Positions 1 through 20,626 of a stretch of 21,435 nucleotides of DNA are shown piece after piece. Within the stretch, counting starts at the first letter, position 1. Each line of letters begins with the position of its first letter. This stretch comes from a virus (taxonomy: Duplodnaviria > Heunggongvirae > Uroviricota > Caudoviricetes). The notes under the pieces are model-generated. The model was not told where the DNA came from and made no database searches. It worked only from the letters and a program-made list of their open reading frames with translations. The translations under genes were made by a program, and so were the position numbers. The DNA lies in the IMG/VR virus record IMGVR_UViG_3300042880_000509. One strand, written 5' to 3'.

Positions 1-504
1 TTGTGTTTTTCTAAATGCTGGAGTTAGTGCCTCATTTACTTTTTCCCAGTATTCTTCGGATTCTATAGCACTTGTTGTAATATCCCACATACTACCATGA
101 CCTTGAGTTCTAAATTCTTTAATAACACCGCATAAATCTGGAAGAGAAGGAATCTCACTAAGTATATCAATCATTTCGTCCTCATCACAAGATGTCAAAT
201 ACCCAGTCCCAGGACATGCGGTATGATATTCTTTAGCAAGACCTTCGTGTTTTTCTTGACTCTCAATTGGTTTTCCCTCTATACCACCTCTTTCACACAT
301 TTCAAATGTTGAGCTTGCTCTTTGTCTTGGTTCACCACTAGACCACCAATTATAAACGTCTTTACCTACGTTAGCAACTAGTGCTGATCCGGCAACCCAT
401 AAAGCAATAGTTAGTACTTCTTCATTTAGTTGTTGTCTTTCGTTTAAAACTCTCTTAACAATTCTTTTAAGATCATTTTCATTAATATTTACTATTTTTC
501 CCAT
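1..504 (-). CDS. Leader-bearing hypothetical protein, 3' end outside the window (not in ORF track)
   Basis: Hand translation from ATG at 504 is open to the window edge: MGKIVNINENDLKRIVKRVLNERQQLNEEVLTIALWVAGSALVANVG...; class A leader, then a hydrophobic segment and a Cys-containing domain. Confidence 0.9.
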   Translation of the reverse strand, partial: MGKIVNINENDLKRIVKRVLNERQQLNEEVLTIALWVAGSALVANVGKDVYNWWSSGEPRQRASSTFEMCERGGIEGKPIESQEKHEGLAKEYHTACPGTGYLTSCDEDEMIDILSEIPSLPDLCGVIKEFRTQGHGSMWDITTSAIESEEYWEKVNEALTPAFRKTQ

Positions 505-516
505 TTTTATTTTATT

Positions 517-750
517 TTAATTGGATCCTGAATAATCCCTTTTATTTTCAATTTTATTATAAAAACCTTCTTTGGTTCCTTTCCAGTCCCAAGGTAAATC
601 ATGTTTCATGTTATATTCTATTTGTCTTTCAGAAACACCTTTTAGTTTTGACATAATTTTTTTAAAAAAACCAATATTAGTTTCTTCCTTCTCTTCTAGA
701 ACAAGTTTTACAATTCTACGATAATCACTTTCGTTAATATGTCTTTTCAT
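517..750 (-). CDS. Leader-bearing hypothetical protein (77 aa)
   Basis: Start moved from 771 to ATG 750 (MKRHINESDYRRIVKLVLEE, class A leader); TATTTAT box at 762-768. Confidence 0.85.
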   Translation of the reverse strand: MKRHINESDYRRIVKLVLEEKEETNIGFFKKIMSKLKGVSERQIEYNMKHDLPWDWKGTKEGFYNKIENKRDYSGSN

Positions 751-818
751 AAGTTTTATTAATAAATACATTTTACTATATAAAAATTTTAAGTTAATAT
801 TAATTAAAATTAAAATAA

Positions 819-1244
819 ATGGAAAAAATAACTCAAAACAGTACTGTGACTGTAAATTACACAGGTAAATTAGAAGATGGAACTATTTTTGACACATCTT
901 TAGTTGAAGGTAGGGAGCCACTAAAGGCTAAATTAGGTGAAGGTCAATTAATCCCAGGATTTGAATCTGGATTAATTGATATGACAATGGGTGAAAATAA
1001 AACTATTGATATAAACCCAACTGAAGCCTATGGTGAATATAACGACGAATTAATTGTTGAGGTCCCAAAAAATAATGTTCCCGAAAATGTTGAGGTTGGT
1101 ATGATGTTACAAACTTTTGGTCCTATGGGTCCTAGTATTGTTAAAGTTTTGGAAATTAAAGATGAGGTTGTTGTTTTAGATGCTAATCATCCTTTGGCTG
1201 GTAAAAAACTTACTTTTGAATTAGAAGTTGTTGGTGTAGAATAA
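819..1244 (+). CDS. slyD: FKBP-type peptidyl-prolyl cis-trans isomerase, SlyD/SlpA-like with insert-in-flap domain, no His-rich tail
   Basis: VTVNYTGKLEDGTIFDTS, LGEGQLIPGFESGL, AYGEY and DANHPLAGKKLTFELEVV are hallmark SlyD/SlpA motifs; slyD versus slpA assignment is uncertain. Confidence 0.95.
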   Translation: MEKITQNSTVTVNYTGKLEDGTIFDTSLVEGREPLKAKLGEGQLIPGFESGLIDMTMGENKTIDINPTEAYGEYNDELIVEVPKNNVPENVEVGMMLQTFGPMGPSIVKVLEIKDEVVVLDANHPLAGKKLTFELEVVGVE

Positions 1245-1256
1245 TACACCAACAAC
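1227..1256. terminator. Perfect 12-bp hairpin between convergent genes
   Basis: GTTGTTGGTGTA-GAATAA-TACACCAACAAC; the FKBP stop codon lies in the loop; U-tracts are weak. Confidence 0.55.
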
Positions 1257-1258
1257 AT

Positions 1259-1633
1259 TTAAATTATCTGTTTAATTTCTTGTGAAATATCATTAACTTC
1301 TACGTTATGATATTCTATAATGTCAATTATTCTATTTGCAAGATCTAATATGTGGTCAGATTTTTGATCTCTCATTCCTGAATTTACGGATTCATCAACT
1401 ATATCTTCACATTTCTTTTTTATTTTATCAAGATATTTTTCGGTGTATGTTAACTCCTCAACAACCCTATTTAATTTACTTAAATTTTTAGTGTAGTGAT
1501 AACCTTTACCTTTAAAAAAACCTTTAACACCTGTCCAAGTATCGCCTAATCCTTCATTTGTTTCAGAATAATTTTCTTTTACAACTTTTTTAATAATTCT
1601 ATTAATATCTTGTTCTGTTAAATTTCTTCTCAT
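1259..1633 (-). CDS. Leader-bearing helical hypothetical protein
   Basis: MRRNLTEQDINRIIKKVVKE class A leader; coiled-coil-like cargo. Confidence 0.9.
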   Translation of the reverse strand: MRRNLTEQDINRIIKKVVKENYSETNEGLGDTWTGVKGFFKGKGYHYTKNLSKLNRVVEELTYTEKYLDKIKKKCEDIVDESVNSGMRDQKSDHILDLANRIIDIIEYHNVEVNDISQEIKQII

Positions 1634-1635
1634 GA

Positions 1636-2151
1636 TTAAAAACCTAAAAATGATTTAGCGGCGTTTACCGTACTTTTTGTTGTATCAGATACGGCTTGTG
1701 TTACTTTTTCTGTATTACTTTTTGTTGGTGTTTTTACACAACCAGATTGACATTTTAAAGTAATTGTAATACCGTCTACATTAACTGAAATTTTTTCTTT
1801 ACCAACATTATTTTTAATGGTATTTGACGCTTCCCCACCTGAAGGTAAGTCAAATGTTTGATCGCCTTTTAATGGTATTGAAACTTTAATTGAGTCACCT
1901 TCTGGAAAATCTTTAACATTTACCCCAACACCATAAGCACTTATTGAGTACACATACGTTTGTTTTGTTGTGCTATTTATAACTTTAACATCTCCATCAG
2001 GTGTTGCAGATAAAACATATGGTGATGCTTTATAATCATCTTCAGTTAATTCATCATTTTTAATTTGTTCACTTATAACTTTTCCTTTATTATATGTGAA
2101 CAAATATTTAATTTCATTAATTTCGTTAAGTAATCTTTGTTTCATATTCAA
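1636..2151 (-). CDS. Leader-bearing hypothetical protein
   Basis: MNMKQRLLNEINEIKYLFTY...VISEQ...LTED leader variant, then a beta-rich domain. Confidence 0.88.
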   Translation of the reverse strand: MNMKQRLLNEINEIKYLFTYNKGKVISEQIKNDELTEDDYKASPYVLSATPDGDVKVINSTTKQTYVYSISAYGVGVNVKDFPEGDSIKVSIPLKGDQTFDLPSGGEASNTIKNNVGKEKISVNVDGITITLKCQSGCVKTPTKSNTEKVTQAVSDTTKSTVNAAKSFLGF

Positions 2152-2157: not shown

Positions 2158-3231
2158 TTAATATACATCACCGGTCCAAGTTGTGTCTTCTTTTTCTTGT
2201 TGTCCGGATCCTCCACCCATGTCTTTATCAAAATCATATTCATCATCACCGCCACCACCTTTTTTAGTTTTACAAATTGTTTGTAAATCGGCGTCGGTAA
2301 AATATGTTTTTCCAATTTTTGCTTTTACAGCATCTCTTGTTTTAGAACCAAATTTATTATCAACTCTATAAGGATAAAGACCATCATCTTTTAAACATTG
2401 TTGAGCTTCACCCACTTCTGGTGTGATACATCCCATAGAATAAGTTCCTTTACATTCATTTTTACCACCAACTCTAGGGGTATAATCTGGTTTTGGTGTT
2501 TTATCTTTTCCTGGATCATTTCTAACACCACTATCTCTACCACTTATTGTACTTGAGTATTTAGTGATAAAATCAAGAACATTTGATTTTTCTCCATTAC
2601 TTAAAGTTAGTTCAATGTTACTTAAAGCGTTTTGTCCTGCGTATTTACCATTATAGTTTGATATCTTACCAGTAATATTTGTACTAGCGTGTGATATAAA
2701 ATTACCAGGCATATTTCTCCAAACAATAAATTTATTCCAATAATAAAAAGAACCTTGTTTTTCATTTGAGGATTCTTTCACACTACGTACAAGATCGTTT
2801 TTTTCTAAATTTGTTTTTAGTACGGCCCAATAATTATCATTACCATTTGCCATCCAATCAAAAGTGGTTTTCTTTCCGGATTGTGTACATTCTACATCTA
2901 ATAATTTTGCAAATTCATCGTTCTGATATACTGATCCAAAATTTATGAAATTTTTTGTCCCACACATATAAATAACATCATTATTTTTCATATATGTAAT
3001 CATTACTTCTTTTCTGTTGGTACTTAGACCAAAAGTACTACCTTTCAGAATATTGATTCTTGGTAATGCAAAATTGGTAGCACCTCTAAGGAGAGTTAAT
3101 TCGTAGTTTTTATTAGTTCTTTCATGCGTTAAACGATTTAAACCTTCATAATTCTCATTCAAGGTCTTCTTACTATCATAATTCATGTATAGTAAAGATC
3201 TTTTTATTAAATCTTCATTAATATTTTTCAT
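2158..3231 (-). CDS. Leader-bearing protein with a C-terminal putative peptidoglycan-binding domain (PG_binding_1-like)
   Basis: MKNINEDLIKRSLLYM...TLNEN leader; GCITPEVGEAQQCLKDDGLYPYRVDNKFGSKTRDAVK resembles the G..V..lQ..L...G.....vDG.fG..T..Av pattern; TATTTATA box at 3246-3253. Confidence 0.8.
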   Translation of the reverse strand: MKNINEDLIKRSLLYMNYDSKKTLNENYEGLNRLTHERTNKNYELTLLRGATNFALPRINILKGSTFGLSTNRKEVMITYMKNNDVIYMCGTKNFINFGSVYQNDEFAKLLDVECTQSGKKTTFDWMANGNDNYWAVLKTNLEKNDLVRSVKESSNEKQGSFYYWNKFIVWRNMPGNFISHASTNITGKISNYNGKYAGQNALSNIELTLSNGEKSNVLDFITKYSSTISGRDSGVRNDPGKDKTPKPDYTPRVGGKNECKGTYSMGCITPEVGEAQQCLKDDGLYPYRVDNKFGSKTRDAVKAKIGKTYFTDADLQTICKTKKGGGGDDEYDFDKDMGGGSGQQEKEDTTWTGDVY

Positions 3232-3928: not shown

Positions 3929-4471
3929 TTAGTTCATGTCAGACTTTTTATTTGGCTTGTGCTTATCAAGTCTTATTTGGAATTTAATATCTGAAACTTT
4001 TAAAGATGCTGCGTAATCGGTTAAGTATTTTAATACGTTTTGAGTTAGGTCTGCTAATCTATCCATTAATCTTTCTTTGTCTAGTAACTCTTCACCCATG
4101 TTAACCATTGTTCTTATTTTTTCTTGGTAAGACTCAAGTTTTCTATGTAATATTTCACCTTTTTTAATTGTTTCTTTTTCTGTAAAATCTCTAAAAACAA
4201 TTTTCATAACATCAATTATTTCTGTTATTAAATCAATTGCTTCTTTTAAGTTTTCCCTCAAATCAATATATTCAATATTTTCAGATCTTAACATTGATGT
4301 TATCCCTCTAAATACCTTTGACAGGTCTGTCATTGTATCAACAAGGATTCCCATTGATTTTCCACCATGGTTTAACATTGTATCAAAATCGTCATATCCG
4401 GCCGCTTCCTCATCCAGGTTTTCAACTAACCTCTTAACTTGAGATTCTGTAAGTATAAAATTTCTTCCCAT
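3929..4471 (-). CDS. Leader-bearing helical-bundle or coiled-coil protein
   Basis: MGRNFILTESQVKRLVE leader; heptad-like cargo. Confidence 0.9.
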   Translation of the reverse strand: MGRNFILTESQVKRLVENLDEEAAGYDDFDTMLNHGGKSMGILVDTMTDLSKVFRGITSMLRSENIEYIDLRENLKEAIDLITEIIDVMKIVFRDFTEKETIKKGEILHRKLESYQEKIRTMVNMGEELLDKERLMDRLADLTQNVLKYLTDYAASLKVSDIKFQIRLDKHKPNKKSDMN

Positions 4472-4613: not shown

Positions 4614-4706
4614 TTATACAACTTCAATATCTTGAATTACAAGATTATCTAAAATCTCATATCTTCTAAGAAAATTAAATTGTGATTCTGCTATTACTAC
4701 TTTCAT
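4614..4706 (-). pseudogene. Leader-only stub ORF (30 aa), truncated family member or micropeptide
   Basis: TATTTATA box at 4711-4718, then MKVVIAESQFNFLRRYEILDNLVIQDIEVV and TAA; matches the start of 7023..7319 (MKILITESQLNFIRRL). Confidence 0.6.
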
Positions 4707-4720: not shown

Positions 4721-5356
4721 TTAGCAACTGGATTCCTCCCAATATTTAGATAACATATCGTAATATTCTTCATACATTAGTTTTTCCACTTCTTCTCTTT
4801 CCGGTTCATTATCAAATATATCATAATCCATTTCGTATTCATCGGTACATCCCTCATCTTTATAGAAAAAACATAATCCCTCACTAATACAAAAATCTGC
4901 ATACTCCTCACCATCCTCAAAATTACAAGGATCCTGTATTTCTGTTTGGTAATCAATTATATCTCTTAATTCCTGGAGTCTTCTTAATCTGGTTATTGAT
5001 TTTTTATTTGGTTTAGAGTCCTTTGATTCAAACATATTTTGTTTACCGTAATCACTACAATCAACATCGTGATAATATTTTGATATATCATACTTAAATA
5101 GCATATTAATGGCCGTTTTTATAATTTCAATTTCACTATCGTAGTCTGTTGCTTCATCAAATTTTGTATAATCGTAAAATACAAAATCGGAAACACTATC
5201 AACTACAGTTGAATGAAACATTTCAAACCCGGATTCATTAGGTTTTTTACGATAATAACAAGGTTCCTGATCTGATAGTTCCCTCTCAAATAATTTTTTT
5301 AAATGATCCGGATCTACTCTTCTAAATAAAAAATTAATATATTTTTTCTTATCCAT
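4721..5356 (-). CDS. Protein with two tandem RR...YxxxIxxxY domains
   Basis: FLFRRV...EPC...LFKYDISKYY and RLRRL...DPC...EYYDMLSKYW, joined by an NMFES linker; box at 5361-5368. Confidence 0.9.
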   Translation of the reverse strand: MDKKKYINFLFRRVDPDHLKKLFERELSDQEPCYYRKKPNESGFEMFHSTVVDSVSDFVFYDYTKFDEATDYDSEIEIIKTAINMLFKYDISKYYHDVDCSDYGKQNMFESKDSKPNKKSITRLRRLQELRDIIDYQTEIQDPCNFEDGEEYADFCISEGLCFFYKDEGCTDEYEMDYDIFDNEPEREEVEKLMYEEYYDMLSKYWEESSC

Positions 5357-5894: not shown

Positions 5895-6296
5895 TTACTT
5901 ACATCCGTGATTTATCATTGCAGCTTTAGCTATTTTTCCAAGCATCTTTTGATGGGTGTAATTATCTACAACAGGACCATTAACTTTATTATTAACATCA
6001 CTAATTCTATAGTCTTTTGGATTAAAACTATCTAAAGCACCAGCTCTAGTTACAACATAATAAAGTGGTTGTGCTCCAGTTGTTTTTTTTGTCTTTGGGT
6101 CAACTTCATCAAACTGAATAAATGTGTTTTGACAACCAATTGTTGCTAATCCAGTAATTTGATGTGATTTATTAACAATAAAAGAAACAACTGATCCTCT
6201 TGTATAAGTTTGTTCCATTAATAGTTTACTCTCATTAATTACTCTTCTTACAATTCTTGTAAGATCTGATTCTGTTAATCTAACAATTCTTTTCAT
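5895..6296 (-). CDS. Leader-bearing hypothetical protein
   Basis: MKRIVRLTESDLTRIVRRVINESKLLMEQ class A leader; box at 6329-6336. Confidence 0.9.
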   Translation of the reverse strand: MKRIVRLTESDLTRIVRRVINESKLLMEQTYTRGSVVSFIVNKSHQITGLATIGCQNTFIQFDEVDPKTKKTTGAQPLYYVVTRAGALDSFNPKDYRISDVNNKVNGPVVDNYTHQKMLGKIAKAAMINHGCK

Positions 6297-6354: not shown

Positions 6355-6645
6355 TTAACCCATAGGGTAATCCCTTTTAAAATTTCTATAATACATATCC
6401 ATTAAAGGATTAAACTGACCAATTATAAAATCAACAATTGGTTCCCACTCACTTTCTGATAATTGATCAAGTGAAATATCAAACTTCAACTGGAAGAATG
6501 TATCAACAGCCGTTTTTGCTAGGTCTATCTTAAATGCTTCTTTATTTTTGGTATCCCAATAAGAGTGTATAGCACCCCTTCTCATAATTTTTTCAATCTT
6601 ATGTGAGTCGTATCGTCTTAAAAAAAATGATGGTAACTTATCCAT
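6355..6645 (-). CDS. RR...YxxxIxxxY family protein without leader
   Basis: LPSFFLRRY...QFNPLMDMYY. Confidence 0.85.
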   Translation of the reverse strand: MDKLPSFFLRRYDSHKIEKIMRRGAIHSYWDTKNKEAFKIDLAKTAVDTFFQLKFDISLDQLSESEWEPIVDFIIGQFNPLMDMYYRNFKRDYPMG

Positions 6646-6648: not shown

Positions 6649-6990
6649 TTATACTTTTTCCATATCAACGCCACCAGTACTTCCTTCAGTTGATGAACCT
6701 TTTACAAAATTAATAACAGAATTAACATTTTCTTTTGATAAGGTTTTTTCAGTTCCATTTTTTGATTTAACCTTACATCCACCATCACTTGTTTTAGATA
6801 ATGATGCAACATTTATATTCATATAAAGTTTGGAGAATCTAATTTTTGCAGTTTTTTTATCAACAGTAATAGAAACGGTTCCATCACCATTCACACTAAA
6901 TGTTGCGTTGTTAATTACAACACTTTCATTAATTACACGTCTTACAATTCTAGAAAGATCGGATTCTGTAAGTCTAATTATTTTTTTCAT
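6649..6990 (-). CDS. Leader-bearing small beta-rich protein
   Basis: Start moved to ATG 6990 (MKKIIRLTESDLSRIVRRVINE); box at 7007-7013. Confidence 0.88.
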   Translation of the reverse strand: MKKIIRLTESDLSRIVRRVINESVVINNATFSVNGDGTVSITVDKKTAKIRFSKLYMNINVASLSKTSDGGCKVKSKNGTEKTLSKENVNSVINFVKGSSTEGSTGGVDMEKV

Positions 6991-7022: not shown

Positions 7023-7319
7023 TTAAAAAAGACTACTAGGTTTCTTACTGTTATAAATCTTTCGTATCTCACCCCTTAGTTCATAAACAATGTAATCTCT
7101 AAACTCCGTGCGTAAAGGATATTTTACCCCACGCCCACCAAATGGTGTCATATAACTTGGAAGTTCATTTAGGGTTGTTATTGCAACATGAGAAATATAA
7201 TCTTGAAAATCAACAAACTCGGTTGGCTCAACAAATTGTAGCACCTTATTAAGTTCCTCCTCAATGGCGGGAAGTCTTCTAATGAAATTAAGTTGGGATT
7301 CGGTAATTAATATTTTCAT
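7023..7319 (-). CDS. Leader plus RR...YxxxIxxxY domain
   Basis: MKILITESQLNFIRRL...ELRGEIRKIY; box at 7325-7331. Confidence 0.88.
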   Translation of the reverse strand: MKILITESQLNFIRRLPAIEEELNKVLQFVEPTEFVDFQDYISHVAITTLNELPSYMTPFGGRGVKYPLRTEFRDYIVYELRGEIRKIYNSKKPSSLF

Positions 7320-7346
7320 ATAAGATAAATATTTGTCAATTCCAAA

Positions 7347-8174
7347 TTAGGTTACCCCTTGTTGATTTACTTTATTTATACCTTGTTTGATTAAATTTAA
7401 CTTATCTTGTGAAAGATTCCCAAATGAACTATCCATTTGTGTTTTAACCTTTTCAAGATCTTTTGGATTTTGTGTTACATTAACTGTTGTTGGAGTGATT
7501 AGTTTTGGGTAATATGAGGCTAATGAATTTAAAAAGAACTTTTGTGTTTGATTTAAACTACTTTGGTATTTAGTTATATTTGTCAATTTTTCAAAAAACG
7601 TTTCAGCAGCACCTGGTTCCTGTTTTATATTTTCTCTCATTTTTTGTATCAATTCTGTGAATCTCTCTTTTAAATAATTTTTTGGGTCGTTTTGAGCGTG
7701 GGCTGGAATCGGTAATTCCATAAATCTTAAATAATATTCATCAATGTTTAACATGTCAGCCATGTCTTTTGTGAAATTATTGGTTGATGTTTCTTGATTA
7801 TCAACAGTTCCTCCACTCATATCTTTATTAATAAATGGTTTAACAAATTTCTTCCAAAGATCACTACTTTTTGTCGTAATCTCACCGTCACTATTATTTG
7901 GACACCAACCATCACCTGTTTTACAAACCCAAACAGGAATATTATTTTCTTCCATAAATTTCTTTAAATAATCATTATAATCCTTGTCTGTCCAACTACC
8001 GGTAGTTGCCGCCGGTAATTTTATATTATAATGGTTGTTTAAAAACTGGGCATAGTTTTTAGTGTGTTTGGCTTTTTTTGAATTTAGTACTTCCGGTGTT
8101 AGTTTTTCGCCAACTATTTCATACAACCCTAAGATTCTTTTTTTTTCATCTTCAGTAATAATTAATCTTTTCAT
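7347..8174 (-). CDS. Leader-bearing hypothetical protein
   Basis: MKRLIITEDEKKRILGLYE leader; YAQFLN...L...GSW segment weakly resembles a degenerate PG-binding fold; box at 8181-8187. Confidence 0.88.
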   Translation of the reverse strand: MKRLIITEDEKKRILGLYEIVGEKLTPEVLNSKKAKHTKNYAQFLNNHYNIKLPAATTGSWTDKDYNDYLKKFMEENNIPVWVCKTGDGWCPNNSDGEITTKSSDLWKKFVKPFINKDMSGGTVDNQETSTNNFTKDMADMLNIDEYYLRFMELPIPAHAQNDPKNYLKERFTELIQKMRENIKQEPGAAETFFEKLTNITKYQSSLNQTQKFFLNSLASYYPKLITPTTVNVTQNPKDLEKVKTQMDSSFGNLSQDKLNLIKQGINKVNQQGVT

Positions 8175-8204: not shown

Positions 8205-8780
8205 TTAATTTAACTCACCATTTTTGTGTTCATCTCTTATCGTCTCCAAACGGGGAATAACAATTTCAAACATTTGTTCCATACCATCATTTTTAAACCA
8301 ATTAAAAAATCCAACAAAACTTGAAAAATTTTCCGGTGGTGAAATGGTTGCAAAATTATCCTCACCCCAAATTTCATAATAATCGTCTTCAATAAAATAA
8401 TCTGTGGTATCAACAGGTATAAAACACTCACCTTCATAATAAGGTGTTGCAAGAACAACAATACCATCATAATTTTCTGGATCTTTTATATCATATTCCA
8501 TAACCCCATCATATCTTTTGTTAGACGATACTTCATATGGTTTATTATCAAAATAAAATGTAAAATTATGATCAAAATATTTTTTACCATAAAAATATCT
8601 ATGTAACTGACTCAAATCATAACAATCAAATTCAGGAAAATCGTTTTTAAAAATAAAATCAAGAGTTTTTGGGGTTAAAGAATAAGTTTCAAAAGTTTTA
8701 TACACACCTTTTTTTTCAAACGAGTCTAGAATCTTTGTTTTTAATTTATCTTTTTGATTTTCTGTTATAAGAAGTTTCAT
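8205..8780 (-). CDS. Leader-bearing protein, paralog of the C-terminal domain of 9446..10375
   Basis: Start moved to ATG 8780 (MKLLITENQ); ILDSF...LTPKTLDFIF...ATPYYEGEC matches ILNSF...LTPKALDKIF...ATPFYEGYC; box at 8787-8793. Confidence 0.88.
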   Translation of the reverse strand: MKLLITENQKDKLKTKILDSFEKKGVYKTFETYSLTPKTLDFIFKNDFPEFDCYDLSQLHRYFYGKKYFDHNFTFYFDNKPYEVSSNKRYDGVMEYDIKDPENYDGIVVLATPYYEGECFIPVDTTDYFIEDDYYEIWGEDNFATISPPENFSSFVGFFNWFKNDGMEQMFEIVIPRLETIRDEHKNGELN

Positions 8781-8802
8781 ATTATGATAAATACTCCATG
8801 AA

Positions 8803-8830
8803 ATAAAAAACCCCACTTGATGAGGTGGGG
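8803..8830 (-). terminator. Intrinsic terminator
   Basis: Minus strand CCCCACCT-CATC-AAGTGGGG followed by TTTTTTAT. Confidence 0.85.
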
Positions 8831-9061: not shown

Positions 9062-9433
9062 TTACATTAACTTTTTTCTTTCCCAGGCTTTGTATAGTCG
9101 GTCCTTATATTTTTTTATTAGGATTGGTTTTAAATCCCAATACATACCCATAATTTTATTTCTACTTTCTTCATTATAAACCACGCCATAATCCGGATCC
9201 TCCTCGGTTTCAATCTCATCAACTTTTTTATCCATAATAAAGTCGTGAAGAAGATCACCAATAACAACACTTGAAAAATCATCAAACTTGTTTACCGGTG
9301 GTGTAGATAAAATATAATGTGTTAATTCTCTATCAAAATATTCAAAATCATCCGTGGTTAATCTTCTTTTAAGAGAATTAGGTAATTCACCAAATAATCT
9401 TTCATACTGGGATTCTCTAATAATAATTTTCAT
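9062..9433 (-). CDS. Leader plus RR...YxxxIxxxY domain (LKRRLT subfamily)
   Basis: MKIIIRESQY...LKRRLTTDDFEYF...KYKDRLYKAW. Confidence 0.9.
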   Translation of the reverse strand: MKIIIRESQYERLFGELPNSLKRRLTTDDFEYFDRELTHYILSTPPVNKFDDFSSVVIGDLLHDFIMDKKVDEIETEEDPDYGVVYNEESRNKIMGMYWDLKPILIKKYKDRLYKAWERKKLM

Positions 9434-9445: not shown

Positions 9446-10375
9446 TTAAAATTCACCATTTCTAAATTTATCCCAAAGTGGGTTAATTTTTTTAAGTATA
9501 ATTTTTGGATAATCGTTATTAAACCAATTTGTTATATCAGAAAATGTTTTAAAATTTTTTTCATTTAAATCAATATAATAATCAATATATTCCTCCGGTT
9601 CAGTTCCACCCAATACTTCATCCTGTATATACGCATCAACAGAAATTGGTAAACCACAATACCCTTCATAAAATGGAGTGGCGTAAACTGCAATAGCATC
9701 TTTATAATCTAAATCAATTATATCAATCATAAGGGCTCTAGTATGATTATCGTTATAAAATATAAATTCATAAGACTTATTATTATATTCAAATAAAGTT
9801 TTTCCTTTTAAAAAACCACTTATAAAAAAAGCTTTTATTAAATCATCGATAATGGAACATTTTCCATAATCACCAAACACCCCAATTTCAGAAATACCTT
9901 TAGGAAATATTTTATCTAAAGCTTTTGGGGTTAAGTTAAATTTTTTTATTGTTTTAATATAATCAATTTCATCAAATGAATTTAAAATCATTTGTTTTGT
10001 TCTATTAATACTAGATTCATTTATATTCCCACTTCGTCCATGATACTCCATATGATAATCATATAATAAATCGTGATATTTCTTTTCTAGAAATGGAATT
10101 AATTGCCAGAAAATTTTATATTTAATATTTTCCTCATCATCCAAATCATCATAATCAAGGTCTTGGTTAATTTCTTCAAGTTTATAGTCGTGAATAAACT
10201 CATTTAAAGAATCACGTAAATTACCCTCAAGGTACCTATTAAAATCTTGCGCAACATAATATCTTTTATTGTTACGAATAACATCATCAAGAATATCAAA
10301 ATCTCTTTCGGTCATCCTTCTTCTAACAACCGGTGGTATTAAATCAATTTCTTCTTTTGTAATAATGAATTTCAT
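9446..10375 (-). CDS. Leader plus RR domain plus ATPxYEGxC domain fusion
   Basis: Start moved to ATG 10375 (MKFIITKEE); box at 10382-10388; the two domains are joined by GNINES. Confidence 0.9.
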   Translation of the reverse strand: MKFIITKEEIDLIPPVVRRRMTERDFDILDDVIRNNKRYYVAQDFNRYLEGNLRDSLNEFIHDYKLEEINQDLDYDDLDDEENIKYKIFWQLIPFLEKKYHDLLYDYHMEYHGRSGNINESSINRTKQMILNSFDEIDYIKTIKKFNLTPKALDKIFPKGISEIGVFGDYGKCSIIDDLIKAFFISGFLKGKTLFEYNNKSYEFIFYNDNHTRALMIDIIDLDYKDAIAVYATPFYEGYCGLPISVDAYIQDEVLGGTEPEEYIDYYIDLNEKNFKTFSDITNWFNNDYPKIILKKINPLWDKFRNGEF

Positions 10376-10874: not shown

Positions 10875-11231
10875 TTATCTGGACCTACCTTTTACCTTCC
10901 AGGCCTGGTATAATCTATTTTTATATTTTTTTTCAAGAAAAGGCATTAAATCTGAATACATTTCAAAAATCTTGTTTGTTTCACTATCGGCATCAAAACC
11001 TAATGTATCATCATATTCTGGTAATTCATCATATTTTTTAACCAAAACAAATTCATTAACAAGATCACTAATAACATCATAAGAAAATTTATTAAAATCC
11101 GGTACCCAACGTATATTATCAATATGATAAACTAAATTAGCATCAAAGTATTTAAAATCATCTGGGGTTAATCTTCTTTTAAGAGAATTAGATAATATAT
11201 TGTACTGGGATTCTGTTATTATGATTTTCAT
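10875..11231 (-). CDS. Leader plus RR domain (LKRRLT subfamily)
   Basis: MKIIITESQY...LKRRLTPDDFKYF...KYKNRLYQAW. Confidence 0.9.
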   Translation of the reverse strand: MKIIITESQYNILSNSLKRRLTPDDFKYFDANLVYHIDNIRWVPDFNKFSYDVISDLVNEFVLVKKYDELPEYDDTLGFDADSETNKIFEMYSDLMPFLEKKYKNRLYQAWKVKGRSR

Positions 11232-11237: not shown

Positions 11238-11483
11238 TTACAGTTTTGATTCTATGTCTTGAATAACGTCTTTTAGTTTACGAATTAACCTTCTTAAATT
11301 ATCAAGTTCATCACCCATTCTTTTGTATTCCCCTTTTCTTGATAGAGTATCATACTCCTCCATTGATCTTGCAAGTTTTTGGGATACGGTTCTATATTCA
11401 TCTTTTACTGAAGATAAAGATCCCCGGTTTTCATTTAAAACCTTTCTTGTAATTCTTGTGATATCTTTTTCTGTTATTTTCAT
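11238..11483 (-). CDS. Leader plus short coiled-coil
   Basis: MKITEKDITRITRKVLNE; box at 11488-11494. Confidence 0.85.
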   Translation of the reverse strand: MKITEKDITRITRKVLNENRGSLSSVKDEYRTVSQKLARSMEEYDTLSRKGEYKRMGDELDNLRRLIRKLKDVIQDIESKL

Positions 11484-11563: not shown

Positions 11564-11803
11564 TTATCGGCCCTCTTTTTCTTTTGACCATCTTTTTGAA
11601 ACATCGTTTCTTAATTCCATATCACTTTCTATTTCGTCAGCAATTTGTCTTAACATATAAACTTTAGATTCTTTTGATTCGTATGAATTAAATAAAAGAT
11701 CTTTTATGTTATTATAAAGCGGATTTTTATCCTTATCTTCTTTTAATGTGTTTCTAACAATTCTTGCTAGATCTGATTCAGTTAATCTAACTATTCTATT
11801 CAT
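11564..11803 (-). CDS. Leader plus small helical domain
   Basis: MNRIVRLTESDLARIVRNTLKE; box at 11822-11829. Confidence 0.88.
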   Translation of the reverse strand: MNRIVRLTESDLARIVRNTLKEDKDKNPLYNNIKDLLFNSYESKESKVYMLRQIADEIESDMELRNDVSKRWSKEKEGR

Positions 11804-12935: not shown

Positions 12936-13676
12936 TTAGTCCCCCTGACTAAATGTCAGTAATAACTTATCAACATCAAGTTGTGGATAAAAATATTCTA
13001 TTCCAATATCCATTGGTTCTTTGTCATCTCTCCATTGTTTATAAAACGACTGACCCCTTTCTAAATTATCAATGTAGTCATCAGTCCAGCTCTCATACTT
13101 TGTGTGGATAACATTCTTTGGTAGAACCTTGTAGATCTGATTAAGATCCCTTTCAATGTTACTACTAATCTTATTTACATTATCCTTTTCTTCTGCATCA
13201 ACATAACGCATAAAGTAAGATCCCTTTTCTCCCAATAGATCCCACCATTCATTTTCAATGTATGTTTTCTTAGGACTTGTTTTTGTTATTGTATAAAACA
13301 TATTTAAATCAAAATGAATATTAAGATAAATGAATGAATTATCAATTTCATGTACCTCAATATCTGTAATGAATGGGTATTTCTTTTTCATTAACTTTTC
13401 TAACATTTGAATGTCCCTACCTTTTTTTTTAACATCGCCGGTTGATTCCTGTAATGTTTCTTGTGTGGGGGATTCAATATCAATGGACCCAATGATTGAG
13501 GTTCCTTCCTTTAGATTATCTTCCCAATCTTTATAATCCTCATCTGAATCAAAGGTTTTAATAATGGACTTGTAGTATTCATTATCCCCATCCTGGATCT
13601 TTAATCCGATCCCCTTTGTTATCTTTGAGGTTAGGGCCTTATTTAATTGCTCTTCTGTTATGATATATTTTTTCAT
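12936..13676 (-). CDS. Leader-bearing two-domain protein
   Basis: MKKYIITEEQL leader; internal TLQES linker before the MLEKLMKKKYPFITDI domain; box at 13681-13688. Confidence 0.9.
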   Translation of the reverse strand: MKKYIITEEQLNKALTSKITKGIGLKIQDGDNEYYKSIIKTFDSDEDYKDWEDNLKEGTSIIGSIDIESPTQETLQESTGDVKKKGRDIQMLEKLMKKKYPFITDIEVHEIDNSFIYLNIHFDLNMFYTITKTSPKKTYIENEWWDLLGEKGSYFMRYVDAEEKDNVNKISSNIERDLNQIYKVLPKNVIHTKYESWTDDYIDNLERGQSFYKQWRDDKEPMDIGIEYFYPQLDVDKLLLTFSQGD

Positions 13677-15558: not shown

Positions 15559-16062
15559 TTATATCTTTAATAACTCTTTAACTTCCGGATGGGATAAGAA
15601 TCTATCCACATCTCTTTTAACTGAACCTACATTACAAAATTGATTATTAAAGAACATTCTTGGTATTCTTTTATACTCATCGTGCCAGATGTCTAATCTA
15701 TAATCTTCTGGTAAATCATTTAATTGTCTTTCATACCACTCGTTTGCTCGTTGGTCAACCTCATCTTCTGTTGTGAAACCATTTGAGTCTAAATATAAAT
15801 TATCAATCTTAATGTATACGTGTACCAAATATGATTGTTCCACTTCTCCCTCGTCATAGTCATAAATCTCATCGGCCAGTATTAGATAATATCTTATGTT
15901 TTTATTTGGATATAGTTTTTTTAATCTACCAATGATATTATAGGCAAAGTAATGACAGTAACCGTGTTGATAATCATACTTATTCCCGTGTTCATTTCCG
16001 GTGTTCCAGTTATCTTCCAGGGTTTCCCTTAATACCTTTCTTATTTGTTCTTGTAGGTTCAT
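15559..16062 (-). CDS. Leader plus putative papain/transglutaminase-like Cys-His-Asp domain
   Basis: MNLQEQIRKVLRE leader; GYC36HYFA...VH81VYIKIDNLYLD92SNG. Confidence 0.7.
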   Translation of the reverse strand: MNLQEQIRKVLRETLEDNWNTGNEHGNKYDYQHGYCHYFAYNIIGRLKKLYPNKNIRYYLILADEIYDYDEGEVEQSYLVHVYIKIDNLYLDSNGFTTEDEVDQRANEWYERQLNDLPEDYRLDIWHDEYKRIPRMFFNNQFCNVGSVKRDVDRFLSHPEVKELLKI

Positions 16063-16583
16063 TATGCTCCGTAATTAAAATCAATATTTTTTATTAACTC
16101 TGAAGAAATGATGCCATTGTATGTTATTGACCTCCATAAATCTAAACTCTCTATAATTTTATCTTCATCATTTTCTGACTTATTCCATCCGTATAAATTC
16201 ATTTTATAATCATCGTCCACATCAAATAAATCATTATCTAATTTTGTTATATCCACGGTTAGTCTAACAATTGGTTTTTTATCATATGATTCTTCATCTT
16301 CATAATATTCATCCATGACATCCATTAAACTTTGTGGTAGATTGGCGTTATATAAACTTGGGGATGTTGTTAAAAAAATACCTTCCGTTCCTTCTTCATA
16401 AAAAGAATTGGGGTATCTTTTAGGGATTAATCCTTCATCAATTATACTTTCTAAATTATCAGTTAAGGTATAATGATATAGGTACTTACCACCAATTAAA
16501 TAATTGGATATCCTATTAGATAGATTTTCATTAATAACCCCCATCATTGATTTCATTCTTGATATTTGTTCTTGTAGGTTCAT
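16062..16583 (-). CDS. Leader plus putative ADP-ribosyltransferase-fold domain (Tpt1/KptA- or DarT-like pattern)
   Basis: MNLQEQISRMKSMM..INE leader; YLYH37YT...NLESII..GL.P...GIFLT...VRLTVD. Confidence 0.7.
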   Translation of the reverse strand: MNLQEQISRMKSMMGVINENLSNRISNYLIGGKYLYHYTLTDNLESIIDEGLIPKRYPNSFYEEGTEGIFLTTSPSLYNANLPQSLMDVMDEYYEDEESYDKKPIVRLTVDITKLDNDLFDVDDDYKMNLYGWNKSENDEDKIIESLDLWRSITYNGIISSELIKNIDFNYGA

Positions 16584-16584: not shown

Positions 16585-16944
16585 TTAACAATTCTTTAAA
16601 GCTTCTTTGAAGTAATCTCTTATGTATTTTTCATAACCACCTTCATTTATTAATTCTTCAACTGTTTTTTGAAGTCTTAAAAGTTGCACAAAGGAAGGTT
16701 CCTCATTATCAAGTTGAGCTATCCTAAATGAAATATCATAAATTATTGATTGTTTAAGTTGACTCACAAAATGATCTTCCGCATCACCAAAAGTTGCTTT
16801 GTCCCATTCTTCATCCGAGTATGATGAATCACAAATATCTTGTTGTGAAAAATTTTCATCAAGATGTTCCATCATAAAACCATAAATTCTTCTTAAATAA
16901 GAATTTAATTTATTGTGTTGTTCTTCTGTGATTATAATCTTCAT
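16585..16944 (-). CDS. Leader plus RR domain
   Basis: Start moved to ATG 16944 (MKIIITEEQH); SYLRRI...GYEKYIRDYF; box at 16949-16955. Confidence 0.88.
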   Translation of the reverse strand: MKIIITEEQHNKLNSYLRRIYGFMMEHLDENFSQQDICDSSYSDEEWDKATFGDAEDHFVSQLKQSIIYDISFRIAQLDNEEPSFVQLLRLQKTVEELINEGGYEKYIRDYFKEALKNC

Positions 16945-16963
16945 ATTAATAAATATTATTGTA

Positions 16964-17278
16964 TTACCTAGACTGCCACTTATTATAGATGTTGCGTATT
17001 TTATCATCATACATTTCAGCAACTTGATTTACATAATCAATTTCTTCTTGTTCTGGTAACTCTTCCCACCCCATATTATATTCTTGCCACATAATATCTT
17101 CTAATGATTTTAGAACTAATTCATATCTAAATTGTTCGTAAGTCTCTGTCTCAAAAAATACTTGGCCGTCATATGAAGAAAAATTTTTTGCAACTTCTTC
17201 CGGTGTTACTCTTCTAAGAAAGAATTTTGTTTTGAGTTCTTCCCTTAATACCTTTCTTATTTGTTCTTGTAGGTTCAT
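16964..17278 (-). CDS. Leader plus RR domain
   Basis: MNLQEQIRKVLREE, KFFLRRV...MYDDKIRNIY; box at 17283-17290. Confidence 0.9.
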   Translation of the reverse strand: MNLQEQIRKVLREELKTKFFLRRVTPEEVAKNFSSYDGQVFFETETYEQFRYELVLKSLEDIMWQEYNMGWEELPEQEEIDYVNQVAEMYDDKIRNIYNKWQSR

Positions 17279-17300
17279 ATGTTATAAATATATGGAAAAC

Positions 17301-17332: not shown

Positions 17333-17358
17333 GTATTAACTTTACCTATATCCATACG

Positions 17359-17631
17359 TTAATTTTTAACACTGTGAAAATACTCCCTTATTTCTTTTTC
17401 ATATCTTTCAGTTACAAATTTTCTGACAGATTTGTGATATTCCGGCTCCATATCATTTTGAGTTATAAAACCAATATTACGAATCCTAAATAAAATTATA
17501 TTAATTGCGGTTGTAACATAATATTCTTCCCCCATATAACCAAACCTGTCAAATTGTTGGGGAATAGCAAATTTGGCCTGTTCATCAATAAATTCTAATC
17601 TTCTAATTAAGGTTCTTTCGTATTTGTTCAC
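17359..17631 (-). CDS. RR-domain protein, probable GTG start, in frame with an upstream leader stub
   Basis: RTLIRRLEFIDE...RYEKEIREYF; TATCTTTG at 17642-17635 ends 3 nt before GTG 17631. Confidence 0.75.
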   Translation of the reverse strand: MNKYERTLIRRLEFIDEQAKFAIPQQFDRFGYMGEEYYVTTAINIILFRIRNIGFITQNDMEPEYHKSVRKFVTERYEKEIREYFHSVKN

Positions 17632-17646
17632 ACACAAAGATATGAA

Positions 17647-17712
17647 TTATTTTCTAATAAAAAAATTACTATCCTCCCTTAATATTCTTGATATGGATTC
17701 TTGTAGGTTCAT
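17647..17712 (-). pseudogene. Leader-only stub MNLQESISRILREDSNFFIRK
   Basis: ATG 17712 overlaps the upstream stop (ATGA); TAA at 17649-17647; same frame as 17359..17631. Confidence 0.7.
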
Positions 17713-18278
17713 TCTTCTTTCATTAAATAATCATCCATTATCTCAATGACTTTAGGTTTTACATTCGGGATGTCATTTATCTCTATATTAAAATTCCATA
17801 AGAAATTATCTTCTTGGTCGTAGATACCTGTTTCAGGTGAATAATAGACTATGTTGGTGGCAAAGTTATTCATATCGTTTGAAATAGTTACATAATAATC
17901 AGACATTGTTCTATCATTCCTAAATTCATAATCTAACATCTGACATACATCTTCAAAACTTGATTGATTGTTATCCCATTTGGCTAATAAAAATATTTCC
18001 GATGCCGTTGGTTGTCCTGTTATACCTACCTTTGGTTTCTTAGGATTTCTTTGAATAATAACCGCATGTAATCCTTTATGGTAATCTTCCCACTCATCCT
18101 TATCATCATTAATACACCACTGGCATTGGTGAGCATATTTTTGTAATGCTCTATGAGTTAATGGAACGACAACAATTATATTATCATCTTTATATAGTTC
18201 CACTCTTTCACTTCTTGGAACTCTAACTTCATTAAGTTCTTCCTTTAATACCTTTCTTATTTGTTCTTGTAGGTTCAT
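17709..18278 (-). CDS. Leader plus YxDD..VVVPLT..A..KY....WC domain
   Basis: MNLQEQIRKVLKEELNE leader; pattern loosely reminiscent of PcfJ-like phage domains (not verified). Confidence 0.85.
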   Translation of the reverse strand: MNLQEQIRKVLKEELNEVRVPRSERVELYKDDNIIVVVPLTHRALQKYAHQCQWCINDDKDEWEDYHKGLHAVIIQRNPKKPKVGITGQPTASEIFLLAKWDNNQSSFEDVCQMLDYEFRNDRTMSDYYVTISNDMNNFATNIVYYSPETGIYDQEDNFLWNFNIEINDIPNVKPKVIEIMDDYLMKEE

Positions 18279-18979
18279 AATGATTTGTTTTGGGTAACAT
18301 CATATCCTAAATTAGATAGTATTATGTAAATTTTATCTTTTTCTTCTTTGGTTGTACTGGTTAACGTAAGTTTTATTAATCCATTCTCGTCTACCATAGA
18401 ATAGTTACGTATATTATTTCGTTCCAAAATTTTTACAATTCTGTCAATTTCTTGATTGGGGGTTAATTTATGTCCGTGATTTGGTGATACCAATACGTCA
18501 TAGTTTTGGGTATATTTTTGGACTTTATTAAGAACGTCTTGTGGTGTTTTTGTATTATTACTTATCGGACCTTCTTCTATTATCTTAAAACCATTTTTTG
18601 TTAAAAAATCACGTATCTCATCTTCATATAAGAAATAGTTATTTAACCTAATCTCATAACTAAATCCCATCCCCAAGCCCATAAAAATATGATTAACTTC
18701 GGATTCAATTCCGTTATTTTTAAAAAGACGTATGATAAATTTTTTTATCATTTCAAAATTATAATTTTTATTAGATATTACAACAATTTTGTAATCATAC
18801 GTTTTAGTTTCTTTAGGTATATCTGTTCTGTTTAAACTATATAAGAATGTCTTCTCTCTATTATTTAATGAGTTCATTCCTTTGGTACTAATCTTATCTA
18901 AGATTTGATTTAATCTATCCTCATCTTCATTCAGATTCATTACCTTTATTATCCTTAATATTTGTTCTTGTAGGTTCAT
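18275..18979 (-). CDS. Leader plus ILDKIS..G..SL..REK.FL helix pair plus two ferredoxin-like repeats
   Basis: RLNQILDKISTKGMNSLNNREKTFL resembles the C-terminal tail of Bacteroidota rhomboids (DUF6576 as I recall it); two beta-alpha-beta...alpha-beta units follow. Confidence 0.8.
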   Translation of the reverse strand: MNLQEQILRIIKVMNLNEDEDRLNQILDKISTKGMNSLNNREKTFLYSLNRTDIPKETKTYDYKIVVISNKNYNFEMIKKFIIRLFKNNGIESEVNHIFMGLGMGFSYEIRLNNYFLYEDEIRDFLTKNGFKIIEEGPISNNTKTPQDVLNKVQKYTQNYDVLVSPNHGHKLTPNQEIDRIVKILERNNIRNYSMVDENGLIKLTLTSTTKEEKDKIYIILSNLGYDVTQNKSL

Positions 18980-19542
18980 TACTTTTTCTTTTTTACACAG
19001 TTAGGATATCGTTTACCAAACATTGTTTTCATTCCTTTCTGGGTATATCCTTTCCAACACTTTTCAGTTAGTTCTGTTTCCTGTAAATCCATTTCATCCT
19101 CATTTGTAATTTGTTCGGAATCTAATACTACCGTTACACCTCTACCAGCAAATGCTGGTTCCCAATATGGTGCTGCTTTGAATGGAAAAAACCTATTCAT
19201 TTCATCACATAAAGTCCTTACAAGCCAAGATTCCATATTACTGGCTGGATTATTTGTGTTAAAATGTATTTTAATTCTTACTTTATCTGGTCTATCTCTA
19301 TTAATTTCTAAATGTAATATATCAACATCTTCTATATCCGCATGATAAATAAAACTTTTAACCAACATCTCCTGGGTTTTTAAATCATCTAAATCAAGAT
19401 TTAATATCTTACTAAAATTATTAAATCCACCAACAGCCGCAGTTGCAACTTTAATCCCCCTATCTTTAAACAACCCCATTAAATTCTTTTGGAGTGATGT
19501 TTCTTCCTTTAATACTTTTTTTATGTGTTCCTGTGGGTTCAT
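18979..19542 (-). CDS. Leader-bearing protein with a C-terminal CWKGY...PNCV micro-domain
   Basis: MNPQEHIKKVLKEE leader; ...DLQETELTEKCWKGYTQKGMKTMFGKRYPNCVKKKK; box at 19547-19553. Confidence 0.9.
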   Translation of the reverse strand: MNPQEHIKKVLKEETSLQKNLMGLFKDRGIKVATAAVGGFNNFSKILNLDLDDLKTQEMLVKSFIYHADIEDVDILHLEINRDRPDKVRIKIHFNTNNPASNMESWLVRTLCDEMNRFFPFKAAPYWEPAFAGRGVTVVLDSEQITNEDEMDLQETELTEKCWKGYTQKGMKTMFGKRYPNCVKKKK

Positions 19543-19554
19543 ATTAATAAATAC

Positions 19555-19869
19555 TTACTCCACATAATATTTTTTATATTGATTGTAGTGGTCAGCTATT
19601 CTATCTTTATAAAGTTCTAATAACCCATTAAAGAAAATTTCATAGAATCTTGCGTTCATACCATAACCACTATGTGAGAAATTAACATTTAAATATGAAC
19701 TAGATAATAAACCATTAATTACACTATTAGTAAATATTTCTAATCTATCCCTCTTATTATAATAATGATGATTTGTGATTCTAACCTTACTTATATAATC
19801 TATAAAAGAATTATCTAATTCTTCCTGGGTATATCTTCTTTTTATTTCTATTGGTAATGTGTTATACAT
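19555..19869 (-). CDS. RR-domain protein without leader
   Basis: LPIEIKRRYTQEEL...LYKDRIADHY. Confidence 0.85.
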   Translation of the reverse strand: MYNTLPIEIKRRYTQEELDNSFIDYISKVRITNHHYYNKRDRLEIFTNSVINGLLSSSYLNVNFSHSGYGMNARFYEIFFNGLLELYKDRIADHYNQYKKYYVE

Positions 19870-19910
19870 AGTTTTTTTTCTTCTACCTTAATAATCTATA
19901 TGGATAAAAA

Positions 19911-19944
19911 TAAAAAAAATCCCCTAGTTTTACAAGTGGGGGAT
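19911..19944 (-). terminator. Intrinsic terminator
   Basis: ATCCCC...GGGGAT stem with an 8-nt A-run on the plus strand. Confidence 0.75.
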
Positions 19945-19948
19945 CAAA

Positions 19949-20626
19949 CTATTTGTTCATTGATTTATATTCTTTTGTTATTTCATCTCTGTAATAATCT
20001 TTTAATGCGTTCTCAATCGTTTCATACCACTGAACATCTTGTGGTAATCTATCTGTTAACATAGCATGAAGATTGTCCATTAATACCGATATTGTTAAAC
20101 TAATATAATTTTCTAAAGTTCTTTCAGTCCGACTATATATAGATGTATTATTTAGTAAACCTTTTGCATAATCTAAAGCATCGTAAAACTCAAAATAAAG
20201 TTCATCTTCTGTAAATCTTCTTTTAATAAAATTTGGTAATTCTTTTTTTTTATGATCATCGTCATTTTCATTAAGATTTGATTTCTTTTTACTGGTTTTT
20301 TTTGAATGCCTGTTATAGTAGTCTTCTATCTTATCTTTTAAATTATCATCAATATATGAATGCACATCATTTTCAATTTTTTGAGTTAAACTATTAAGTT
20401 TGTTATTAACATAATCTGTCGTATCCAACATATCTTTCATTAACATATCGTGTTTTATTCTAAACATCACATGTTTTTTAACTTTTGAATAAAAGTTATC
20501 AAATGTTTCAGATTTTTTTACACCTAAAAAATTAAGGAATGTATCAACCAGTTCTTCTAGTGGTATTGAGGAAGCATACCTTCTTGTAAGTGCACTATAT
20601 TGTGATTCTGTTATTATTATTTTCAT
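19949..20626 (-). CDS. Leader plus two tandem RR domains
   Basis: MKIIITESQY, ALTRRY...NLKDKIEDYY, SNLNEN linker, LPNFIKRRF...YYRDEITKEY; box at 20631-20638. Confidence 0.9.
   Translation of the reverse strand: MKIIITESQYSALTRRYASSIPLEELVDTFLNFLGVKKSETFDNFYSKVKKHVMFRIKHDMLMKDMLDTTDYVNNKLNSLTQKIENDVHSYIDDNLKDKIEDYYNRHSKKTSKKKSNLNENDDDHKKKELPNFIKRRFTEDELYFEFYDALDYAKGLLNNTSIYSRTERTLENYISLTISVLMDNLHAMLTDRLPQDVQWYETIENALKDYYRDEITKEYKSMNK

Follow-up and report, generated by a model that had tools for sequence, protein, structure and literature searches.

The stretch of viral DNA considered here (the window; 21.4 kb, 29% G+C, from IMG/VR record IMGVR_UViG_3300042880_000509) belongs to a hyper-variable array of genes in the genome of an uncultured T4-related jumbo phage of approximately 260-300 kb. 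It holds about 39 open reading frames (ORFs) on the minus strand and two credible genes on the plus strand. Twenty-eight of the minus-strand ORFs (26 intact genes and 2 broken ones) open with a short peptide, the leader, which is fused to a variable protein, the cargo. The leaders are probably prohead-targeting propeptides similar to the capsid-targeting sequences (CTS) of phage T4, carried here by a greatly expanded protein arsenal.

The model for this reading comes from T4, whose internal proteins IPI-III and Alt carry CTS propeptides of 10-19 residues. These attach to the scaffolding core, and the prohead protease gp21 cuts them off after L/I-x-E (PMC9026906, PMC3012670, PMC5694885). Alt is packaged and trimmed by this protease (PMC9026906). 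The T-even internal proteins form a diverse set in which only the CTS is conserved in common (PMC3012670); the T4 sequence is MKTYQEFIAE (PMC8442874).

Profile hidden Markov models (HMMs) were built from the window's own leaders and searched against six-frame translations. In the window every match lies at a Met start: eight for class A (consensus MKRIVRLTESDLxRIVRRVINE; E 2e-14 to 6e-10), eleven for class B (MKIIITESQY; E 9e-7 to 8e-3) and seven for class C (MNLQEQIRKVLRE; E 3e-9 to 3e-6). Nearly all matches in two relatives are also at Met starts. Iteration of the search added a class D (ExxRIKxLMGxxxEQ or, in its fuller form, E-x-x-R-I/M-K-x-L-M-G-x-x-x-E-Q/N) on g2145 and g3231, and g16583 and g18979 bear C/D hybrids. 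A DNA repeat search independently finds the leader families as repeats D1, D3, D6 and D9. An earlier note on this DNA had proposed three classes and about 29 leader ORFs. All three classes stand, with D as a necessary fourth, and translation gives the quoted peptide at every start that the note listed. Its count comes down to 28, since the ORF starting at 12715 (QLLESDL) falls below the HMM threshold, and the gene that it placed at 2151 is a leader gene of class D whose true start is the ATG at 2145. Only two of its four plus-strand genes look real: an FKBP gene (819-1244) and a gene for a signal-peptide protein (5412-5852), the latter without a leader.

The four classes are variants of one amphipathic helix. 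Their common theme is [LI]-[TQ]-E-[SQ] within residues 3-10, and in classes A, C and D a second [LIV]-x-E lies 8-15 residues further on. Most leaders are amphipathic and have an invariant [LIV]-x-Glu; their median helical hydrophobic moment is 0.59, as against 0.41 in internal control windows, with high values in classes A and C. Besides M1, the invariant columns are E9 and E22 among 13 sequences and T8, E9 and E22 among 64 metagenomic proteins. An [LIVF]-x-E occurs inside the first 30 residues of 25 of 26 leaders. Sec, Tat and lipoprotein signal peptides have been ruled out as an identity for these peptides, which are charged and have no hydrophobic core.

About 13 proteins of the array share a domain of approximately 95 residues that opens with the motif h-x-(K/R)RR-h-x-x-(D/E)(D/E), also given with a further hydrophobic residue at its end, and is called the RRR domain below. 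Acidic residues come next after the arginines, and there is no h-region. This domain is found with leader B, with leader C or, in four proteins (g5356, g6645, g19869 and g20925), without any leader. The genes of the array and two non-coding elements discussed below are as follows.

g504: 1..504, minus strand; class A leader (HMM E 4e-13 at the Met start), 3' end cut by the window start
g750: 517..750, minus strand; class A leader, TATTTAT box 11 nt upstream
g1633: 1259..1633, minus strand; class A leader (HMM)
g2145: 1636..2145, minus strand; class D leader ending ISE-Q (iterated HMM)
g3231: 2158..3231, minus strand; class D leader with a peptidoglycan-binding cargo (PF01471, 23.1 bits against a cut-off of 23), no signal peptide
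g4471: 3929..4471, minus strand; leader intermediate between A and B (HMM), ortholog in relative G001
Start 4706: 4614..4706, minus strand; class B leader remnant (HMM) of 30 codons, then a stop
g5356: 4721..5356, minus strand; RRR-domain paralog without leader, its G001 relative having leader C
g6296: 5895..6296, minus strand; class A leader (HMM E 2e-14)
g6645: 6355..6645, minus strand; RRR-domain paralog without leader, its G001 ortholog having a 17-residue class C leader
g6990: 6649..6990, minus strand; class A leader (HMM)
g7319: 7023..7319, minus strand; class B leader (HMM), TATTTAT box 5 nt upstream
g8174: 7347..8174, minus strand; class B/D leader (HMM)
g8780: 8205..8780, minus strand; class B leader, cargo homologous to the C-terminal half of g10375
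g9433: 9062..9433, minus strand; class B leader and RRR domain
g10375: 9446..10375, minus strand; class B leader, RRR domain and a second domain
g10859: 10485..10859, minus strand; class B leader and RRR domain
g11231: 10875..11231, minus strand; class B leader and RRR domain
g11483: 11238..11483, minus strand; class A leader, short form (HMM)
g11803: 11564..11803, minus strand; class A leader (HMM)
g13676: 12936..13676, minus strand; class B leader (HMM)
g16062: 15559..16062, minus strand; class C leader (HMM)
g16583: 16062..16583, minus strand; C/D hybrid leader, cargo with a predicted fold of ADP-ribosyltransferase type
g16944: 16585..16944, minus strand; class B leader (HMM) and RRR-type domain
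g17278: 16964..17278, minus strand; class C leader (HMM) and RRR domain
Start 17712: 17359..17712, minus strand; class C leader and RRR domain, a broken gene with an in-frame TAA following codon 21
g18278: 17709..18278, minus strand; class C leader (HMM)
g18979: 18275..18979, minus strand; C/D hybrid leader, then DUF6576
g19542: 18979..19542, minus strand; class C leader, 73% identical to its G001 ortholog
g19869: 19555..19869, minus strand; RRR-domain paralog without leader
g20626: 19949..20626, minus strand; class B leader and two RRR-type domains
g20925: 20623..20925, minus strand; RRR-domain paralog without leader
TATTTAT box, example: 7325..7331, minus strand; a further example at 20632-20638
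Terminator-plus-box cassette (repeat D15, from the DNA repeat search): 8781..8817, minus strand; repeated at 11482-11518 with 84% identity

Conservation of the leaders was traced to the peptide or the DNA by comparing pairs of codons for the same residue between leaders, with free codon choice as the expectation. In class A 33% of such pairs differ (46% expected) and in class B 38% (41% expected). These two classes thus come close to free codon choice and yet retain their residues, which places selection at the level of the peptide. Class C behaves otherwise: only 9% of the pairs differ where 37% are expected, and stretches of 40-60 nt of its leader DNA are matched at 88-98% in genomes whose remaining sequence is about 70% identical or cannot be aligned. 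The DNA of g18278 (window 17684-18279) is 95% identical to positions 288377-288972 of relative G005, the match stopping one base past the ATG, and just two other short stretches of the window match G005 at more than 70%; this looks like a recent transfer of a single cassette. The homogenised class C leader DNA and the border of the g18278 exchange indicate that the leader is also a recombination joint. In classes A and C the upstream DNA is not conserved apart from a 7-nt box, TATTTAT.

The leaders travel independently of the cargos. Thirty orthologs of g16583, with cargos 48-88% identical to that of g16583, carry at least 12 N-terminal peptides of different sequence, of which nearly all end in [LIV]-x-E. 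Conversely, in the g10859 family the leader is the best-conserved segment across 34 homologs that are 39-97% identical to g10859. The two leaderless paralogs g5356 and g6645 have counterparts with leader C in G001; the identity of g19542 with its G001 ortholog is the highest among the leader genes of the window. AlphaFold models of the g16583 and g10859 families both place the leader outside the domain, at the lowest predicted local confidence (pLDDT), so that the leaders appear, as modelled, to be detached from the cargo fold. As an observation apart, the C-terminus of g19542 (18979-19542) is a basic tail rich in Cys, CWKGY...GKRYPNCVKKKK.

The earlier note had also stated that likeness between genes ends right after the Glu and that the cargos differ. 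The first statement describes many pairs: in BLASTP, likeness runs to residues 15-17 between class C proteins and to residues 22-32 between class A proteins. It does not describe class B, in which S8-Q9-Y10 are invariant downstream of the Glu, nor g9433, g10859, g11231 and g10375, which are full-length paralogs. As to the second, many pairs do align across the leader only; because the RRR domain recurs in about 13 proteins, however, the cargos are not all different. Replication or metabolic enzymes bearing a leader, which the note had held incompatible with its reading, are not seen.

Few cargos can be recognised: Pfam and PHROGs are blank for nearly all of them, and a word search with the leader region matches only unannotated proteins. 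A model of the RRR domain, a helical fold, has no significant match in PDB. The g16583 cargo has no Pfam match; its predicted structure is of ADP-ribosyltransferase type, at modest scores, the Foldseek top 50 consisting mostly of Tpt1/KptA, DarT and pertussis-type (such as S1) and cholera-type chains (E 2e-4, TM 0.3-0.4). Residues H37, Y38, T39 and E145 are invariant or nearly so in its family. Beyond the end of the window the same lineage encodes a GH24 lysozyme, a DHH-like protein, a peptidoglycan-binding (PGB) protein and an SGNH+PGB+SLT protein, all leader-tagged and none with a signal peptide, and a PGB+GH19 protein of relative G012 likewise has a leader and no signal peptide. These leader-tagged wall-degrading enzymes resemble, by analogy, virion-borne wall hydrolases. 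True signal peptides, in the Bacteroidota style ending SQ, occur on g12339 (11923-12339, minus strand) and on the product of the plus-strand ORF 5412-5852, both without a leader.

The evidence on the protease, the head module and promoter association comes from IMG/VR relatives, which are linked to the window through its synteny with G012, a complete 257-kb contig with about 31 leader genes. Another relative is represented by contigs of 223 kb and 154 kb, the latter encoding, in T4 order, a terminase, a portal, a protease of the T4 gp21 type (PF03420), an acidic scaffold and a gp23 capsid protein (PF07068). A protease of this kind had been named in the earlier note as something to look for. 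Relatives encode it beside scaffold and gp23, the G012 homolog lying at 11778-12506. Of 21 large contigs with the leader pattern 16 have this protease; among the nine with a completeness of at least 90% (257-296 kb) it is found in eight.

Other proteins of the structural module show similar sites. Between the portal and protease genes of G012, at 13665-14378, lies a gene whose product contains 16 [LI]-x-E in 237 residues, the highest density in that proteome (average 1.49 per 100 residues; Poisson 1e-6), and an ortholog 47% identical to it has 11. T4 has its core proteins gp67 and gp68 in this position, and this product is a candidate gp67/gp68-like core protein; it resembles the T4 core proteins, which are shredded by gp21 (PMC9026906). 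The capsid protein has LYE51 and INE60 near the point at which, in the alignment, mature T4 gp23 begins. Two conserved structural-module proteins have leader-like N-termini, ending LKE/LNE and IRE/LKE, that are followed by Ala and strongly conserved sequence; Atlas and PDB sequence searches gave no identity for either. A predicted co-fold of a class A leader and the G012 scaffold speaks neither for nor against the prohead reading. As a separate observation, the G012 portal (14400-18422, 1340 amino acids) and large terminase (19487-22492, 1001 amino acids) are about twice as long as their orthologs in relative G002, with split alignments, and probably contain intein-like insertions.

The TATTTAT box occurs 24 times on the gene strand of the window and 4 times on the opposite strand. 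A start codon follows 19 copies at a distance of 4-33 nt, and for 12 of these the spacer measures 4-6 nt, which implies near-leaderless mRNAs. Fourteen leader starts of the window, that is, half of the leader genes, have the box upstream. In G012 it precedes 16 of 31 leader genes and 69 of 297 other genes (p 0.002). In the relatives, the box is found upstream of genes for terminase, protease, scaffold, capsid, tail sheath, fibre, Hoc-like and adaptor proteins, and not upstream of those for DNA polymerase, ribonucleotide reductase, SbcC, RNase H, a DNA helicase or RNA ligase. Because it stands before head and tail genes and not before most replication genes, we infer that TATTTAT is the late promoter of this clade.

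Other non-coding elements are present in the window. A 45-nt element, AAAAATTTCTGGAAnAATTTTTG...CCGG, occurs on the gene strand at 11821-11865, 12374-12418 and 12761-12805, before g11803, g12339 and g12715; it may be another promoter or an operator. Inverted repeats (GGGGATT/AATCCCC) occur in the ORF-poor region 14555-15090 between the A/B block and the C block. Its counterpart in G012, at 82904-83593, shows 74% conservation, and G006, G009 and G010 have the region too. Its two strands give RNA folding z-scores of -4.7 and -4.9, it has no Rfam match, and it may represent either a structured RNA or an origin. Searches of the whole window for tRNAs and Rfam families were negative.

The leader is, as judged from the distribution of its sequence, specific to viruses. 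A degenerate DNA pattern for class A is found in at least 120 stretches of IMG/VR viral contigs, as against 2 in 185,579 prokaryote genomes. Among 1.84 billion representatives the class A profile matches 7,487 clusters, almost always at residue 1, and 62 of 64 metagenomic class A proteins have no Pfam domain. The best matches to the profile contain two or three copies of the motif per ORF, some internal and without Met. In the metagenomic proteins P0070-P0104, class A motifs recur two to three times in single ORFs between unrelated segments, and these look like fused leader-cargo cassettes. Internal copies have neither promoter nor start codon, which argues against a purely translational or transcriptional role of the motif.

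Cultured phages gave no tblastn match to a leader protein or to leader peptides. By capsid protein the nearest cultured relatives are the Flavobacterium 'immuto' phages, in which no class A match was found. The host is probably a member of the Bacteroidota, given the host-type signal peptides, the Flavobacterium-phage relatives of the capsid protein and one match to a Bacteroidetes metagenome-assembled genome. Two side observations concern the window itself. Positions 14018-14065 match 'bajarodmic virus 417' (a rodent-faeces record of about 5.8 kb) at 92% identity over 48 nt, and an approximate repeat of this sequence lies at 13725-13757. The gene for the FKBP-type prolyl isomerase (819-1244, plus strand) lies inside the array, has 66-75% DNA identity in most relatives searched, and might provide a folding helper for the array's proteins.

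The proposed mechanism runs as follows. Most genes of the array are single cassettes, each often with its own terminator and late-type box, followed by the start codon, a peptide of 7-25 residues, a short linker and the variable cargo. The leader, made late together with the head proteins, would attach its cargo to the scaffolding core while the prohead assembles, and the gp21-type serine protease would then cut after the conserved Glu of [LIV]-x-E. The cargo would stay in the head and enter the next host with the DNA. Because leader DNA is common to the cassettes, the leader also serves as a homology joint for the swap, duplication, fusion and loss of cargos. Internal copies of the motif would then mark fused cassettes, giving polyproteins that the protease could cleave. 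The capsid-targeting interpretation put forward in the earlier note fits every indirect test that was run; it lacked the four classes of one helix, the domain shared among cargos, the internal copies and the role as a joint.

The same peptides could instead be docking helices for a hub other than the prohead, such as a lysis or envelope complex or a chaperone of the infected cell, in which case neither packaging nor cleavage would be involved. Amphipathic helices on flexible linkers would suit this function, internal copies would be natural for a position-independent binding module, several wall-acting cargos could have a part in lysis, and the array includes an FKBP gene that is conserved across relatives. 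However, two invariant Glu residues in [LIV]-x-E and the co-occurrence of a T4-type protease would be left unexplained, no candidate hub was found, and a protein of ADP-ribosyltransferase fold or a DHH-like protein made late would be of little use before lysis unless it were carried onward. We regard docking of this kind as unlikely. The near-identity of class C leader DNA, both in codon choice and between dissimilar genomes, the exchange of g18278 as a unit with its border one base past the ATG, the terminator-plus-box repeats (D15) and the box 4-6 nt before 12 starts all suit yet another explanation, namely that the leader is mainly a DNA or mRNA cassette (promoter, start and first codons) for near-leaderless expression and shuffling, the peptide having no address function. 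Shuffling of this type, mediated by PeSL elements, is documented (PMC4122927). Yet classes A and B are close to synonymous saturation while their residues are kept, internal copies keep the peptide without promoter or start codon, and leaders of different sequence and the same pattern replace one another on one cargo, as in the g16583 orthologs. Moreover, upstream conservation in classes A and C is limited to the 7-nt box. A cassette without an address is slightly less probable again than a docking helix, although in our opinion the DNA-level role is a real second role of the leader and not a replacement for the address.

It is very improbable, finally, that the array consists of ordinary multigene families, made up of diverged paralogs that share a folded domain and have its first helix as their common N-terminus. 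The full-length paralogs g9433, g10859, g11231 and g10375 and the 13 or so RRR-domain proteins have this appearance. Against it, the alignment of many pairs begins at residue 1 and stops between residues 15 and 32, with unrelated sequence beyond, cargo folds and domains differ (ADP-ribosyltransferase fold, PG_binding_1, GH24, SLT, GH19 and the unmatched helical fold), the leader has the lowest confidence in both AlphaFold models, and the RRR domain is found with leader B, leader C or none.

The prohead-targeting reading must itself be set against a number of observations that count against it. Its scale is far above that of T4, with 28 leader genes here and about 31 in the complete relative, and internal motif copies are a feature that T4 CTSs are not known to have. 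The array includes leaderless paralogs, and the mostly acidic cargos (median pI 5.4) are an awkward fit beside packed DNA. [LIV]-x-E is a low-information motif: because 33% of 23-residue control windows have one, it is weak evidence when taken alone. The invariant SQY downstream of the Glu in class B implies that this class is cut elsewhere or that residues after the cut matter. The protease is known from relatives and not from the window's own genome, the late-class assignment of TATTTAT is by association only, and one gene for a DnaB-type helicase forms an exception in having the box. Nor was a cultured relative with the leader found.

Comparison with known systems places the array nearest to the T4 CTS. 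In both, short N-terminal peptides ending L/I-x-E are carried by otherwise unrelated proteins of one phage, and the lineage here, as known from the relatives, has the gp21-type protease, gp22-type scaffold and gp23 capsid protein. Its cargo set is hyper-variable as well, and g16583 has a predicted ADP-ribosyltransferase fold, as Alt does. The likeness in sequence is limited to a pattern, h-Q-E-x-I, shared with class C, a 10-residue peptide being too short for a significant match. Unlike the T4 system, this one has four classes, lengths of up to 25 residues and often two Glu sites, tens of tagged genes per genome instead of about five, internal copies in longer proteins and mostly acidic cargos, and it is known from sequence alone. 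In phiKZ-like phages (201phi2-1, SPN3US), propeptides of ejection or inner-body proteins are cut after S/A-x-E by proteases of the gp175/gp245 type (PMC5694885, PMC9026906). As is proposed here, many proteins of the head interior are processed there by cuts after Glu, with several cut sites per propeptide, and paralogs such as gp53 and gp54 of SPN3US have identical N-termini and diverged bodies. Their propeptides, however, are mostly longer than 100 residues and follow no single portable consensus, whereas the protease here is of the canonical T4 S77 type and the P3 residue is L/I/V instead of S/A.

At the DNA level the array recalls the PeSLs, mobile promoter-terminator cassettes in hyperplastic regions of T4-type phages (PMC4122927, PMC2839356). 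Both have a short conserved terminator and promoter between variable genes, exchange joints at cassette borders and a hyperplastic setting of small ORFs. PeSLs are non-coding and have early promoters, whereas the box here is of the structural-gene type and the homology extends into a coding leader that is itself under peptide-level selection. As an analogy of mechanism only, the cargo-loading peptides of encapsulins are comparable, and encapsulin shells have the HK97 fold, like phage capsids. The encapsulation peptides of bacterial microcompartments, in which a short amphipathic helix with a disordered linker directs diverse cargo into a shell, are a further analogy of this kind (PMC12339742). 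Microcompartment or encapsulin genes are absent here, and those peptides are not removed by a protease. A full-text literature search with the leader strings found no publication on these leaders and nothing else of relevance. While the principle is known, the scale, the four classes, the cassette with its own box, the internal copies and the metagenomic breadth appear undescribed in the literature searched.

In its widest form the proposal is that in a worldwide clade of T4-related jumbo phages capsid targeting of the T4 kind has become a general platform for effector delivery, to which we would give slightly less than an even chance. About one tenth of the genes would be self-contained cassettes, in which a promoter and a near-leaderless start are followed by the address helix, with its Glu cut sites, and by the cargo. 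These cassettes would recombine via the leader and supply thousands of mostly unknown head-loaded proteins, including protease-cut polyproteins, as a counterpart of bacterial effector arsenals or integron cassette arrays. If the leaders are indeed head-loading tags, all the proteins injected by a large group of uncultured phages would be recognisable by a plain motif. The motif would yield a catalogue of candidate first-strike anti-defence and host-takeover proteins (the 7,487 clusters, nearly all of unknown function) and a natural model for the shuffling of such arsenals. The leaders would also add new portable tags to the T4 CTS, which already serves to bring foreign proteins into capsids, and the number of proteins that one phage can inject, a long-standing question, would become directly testable.

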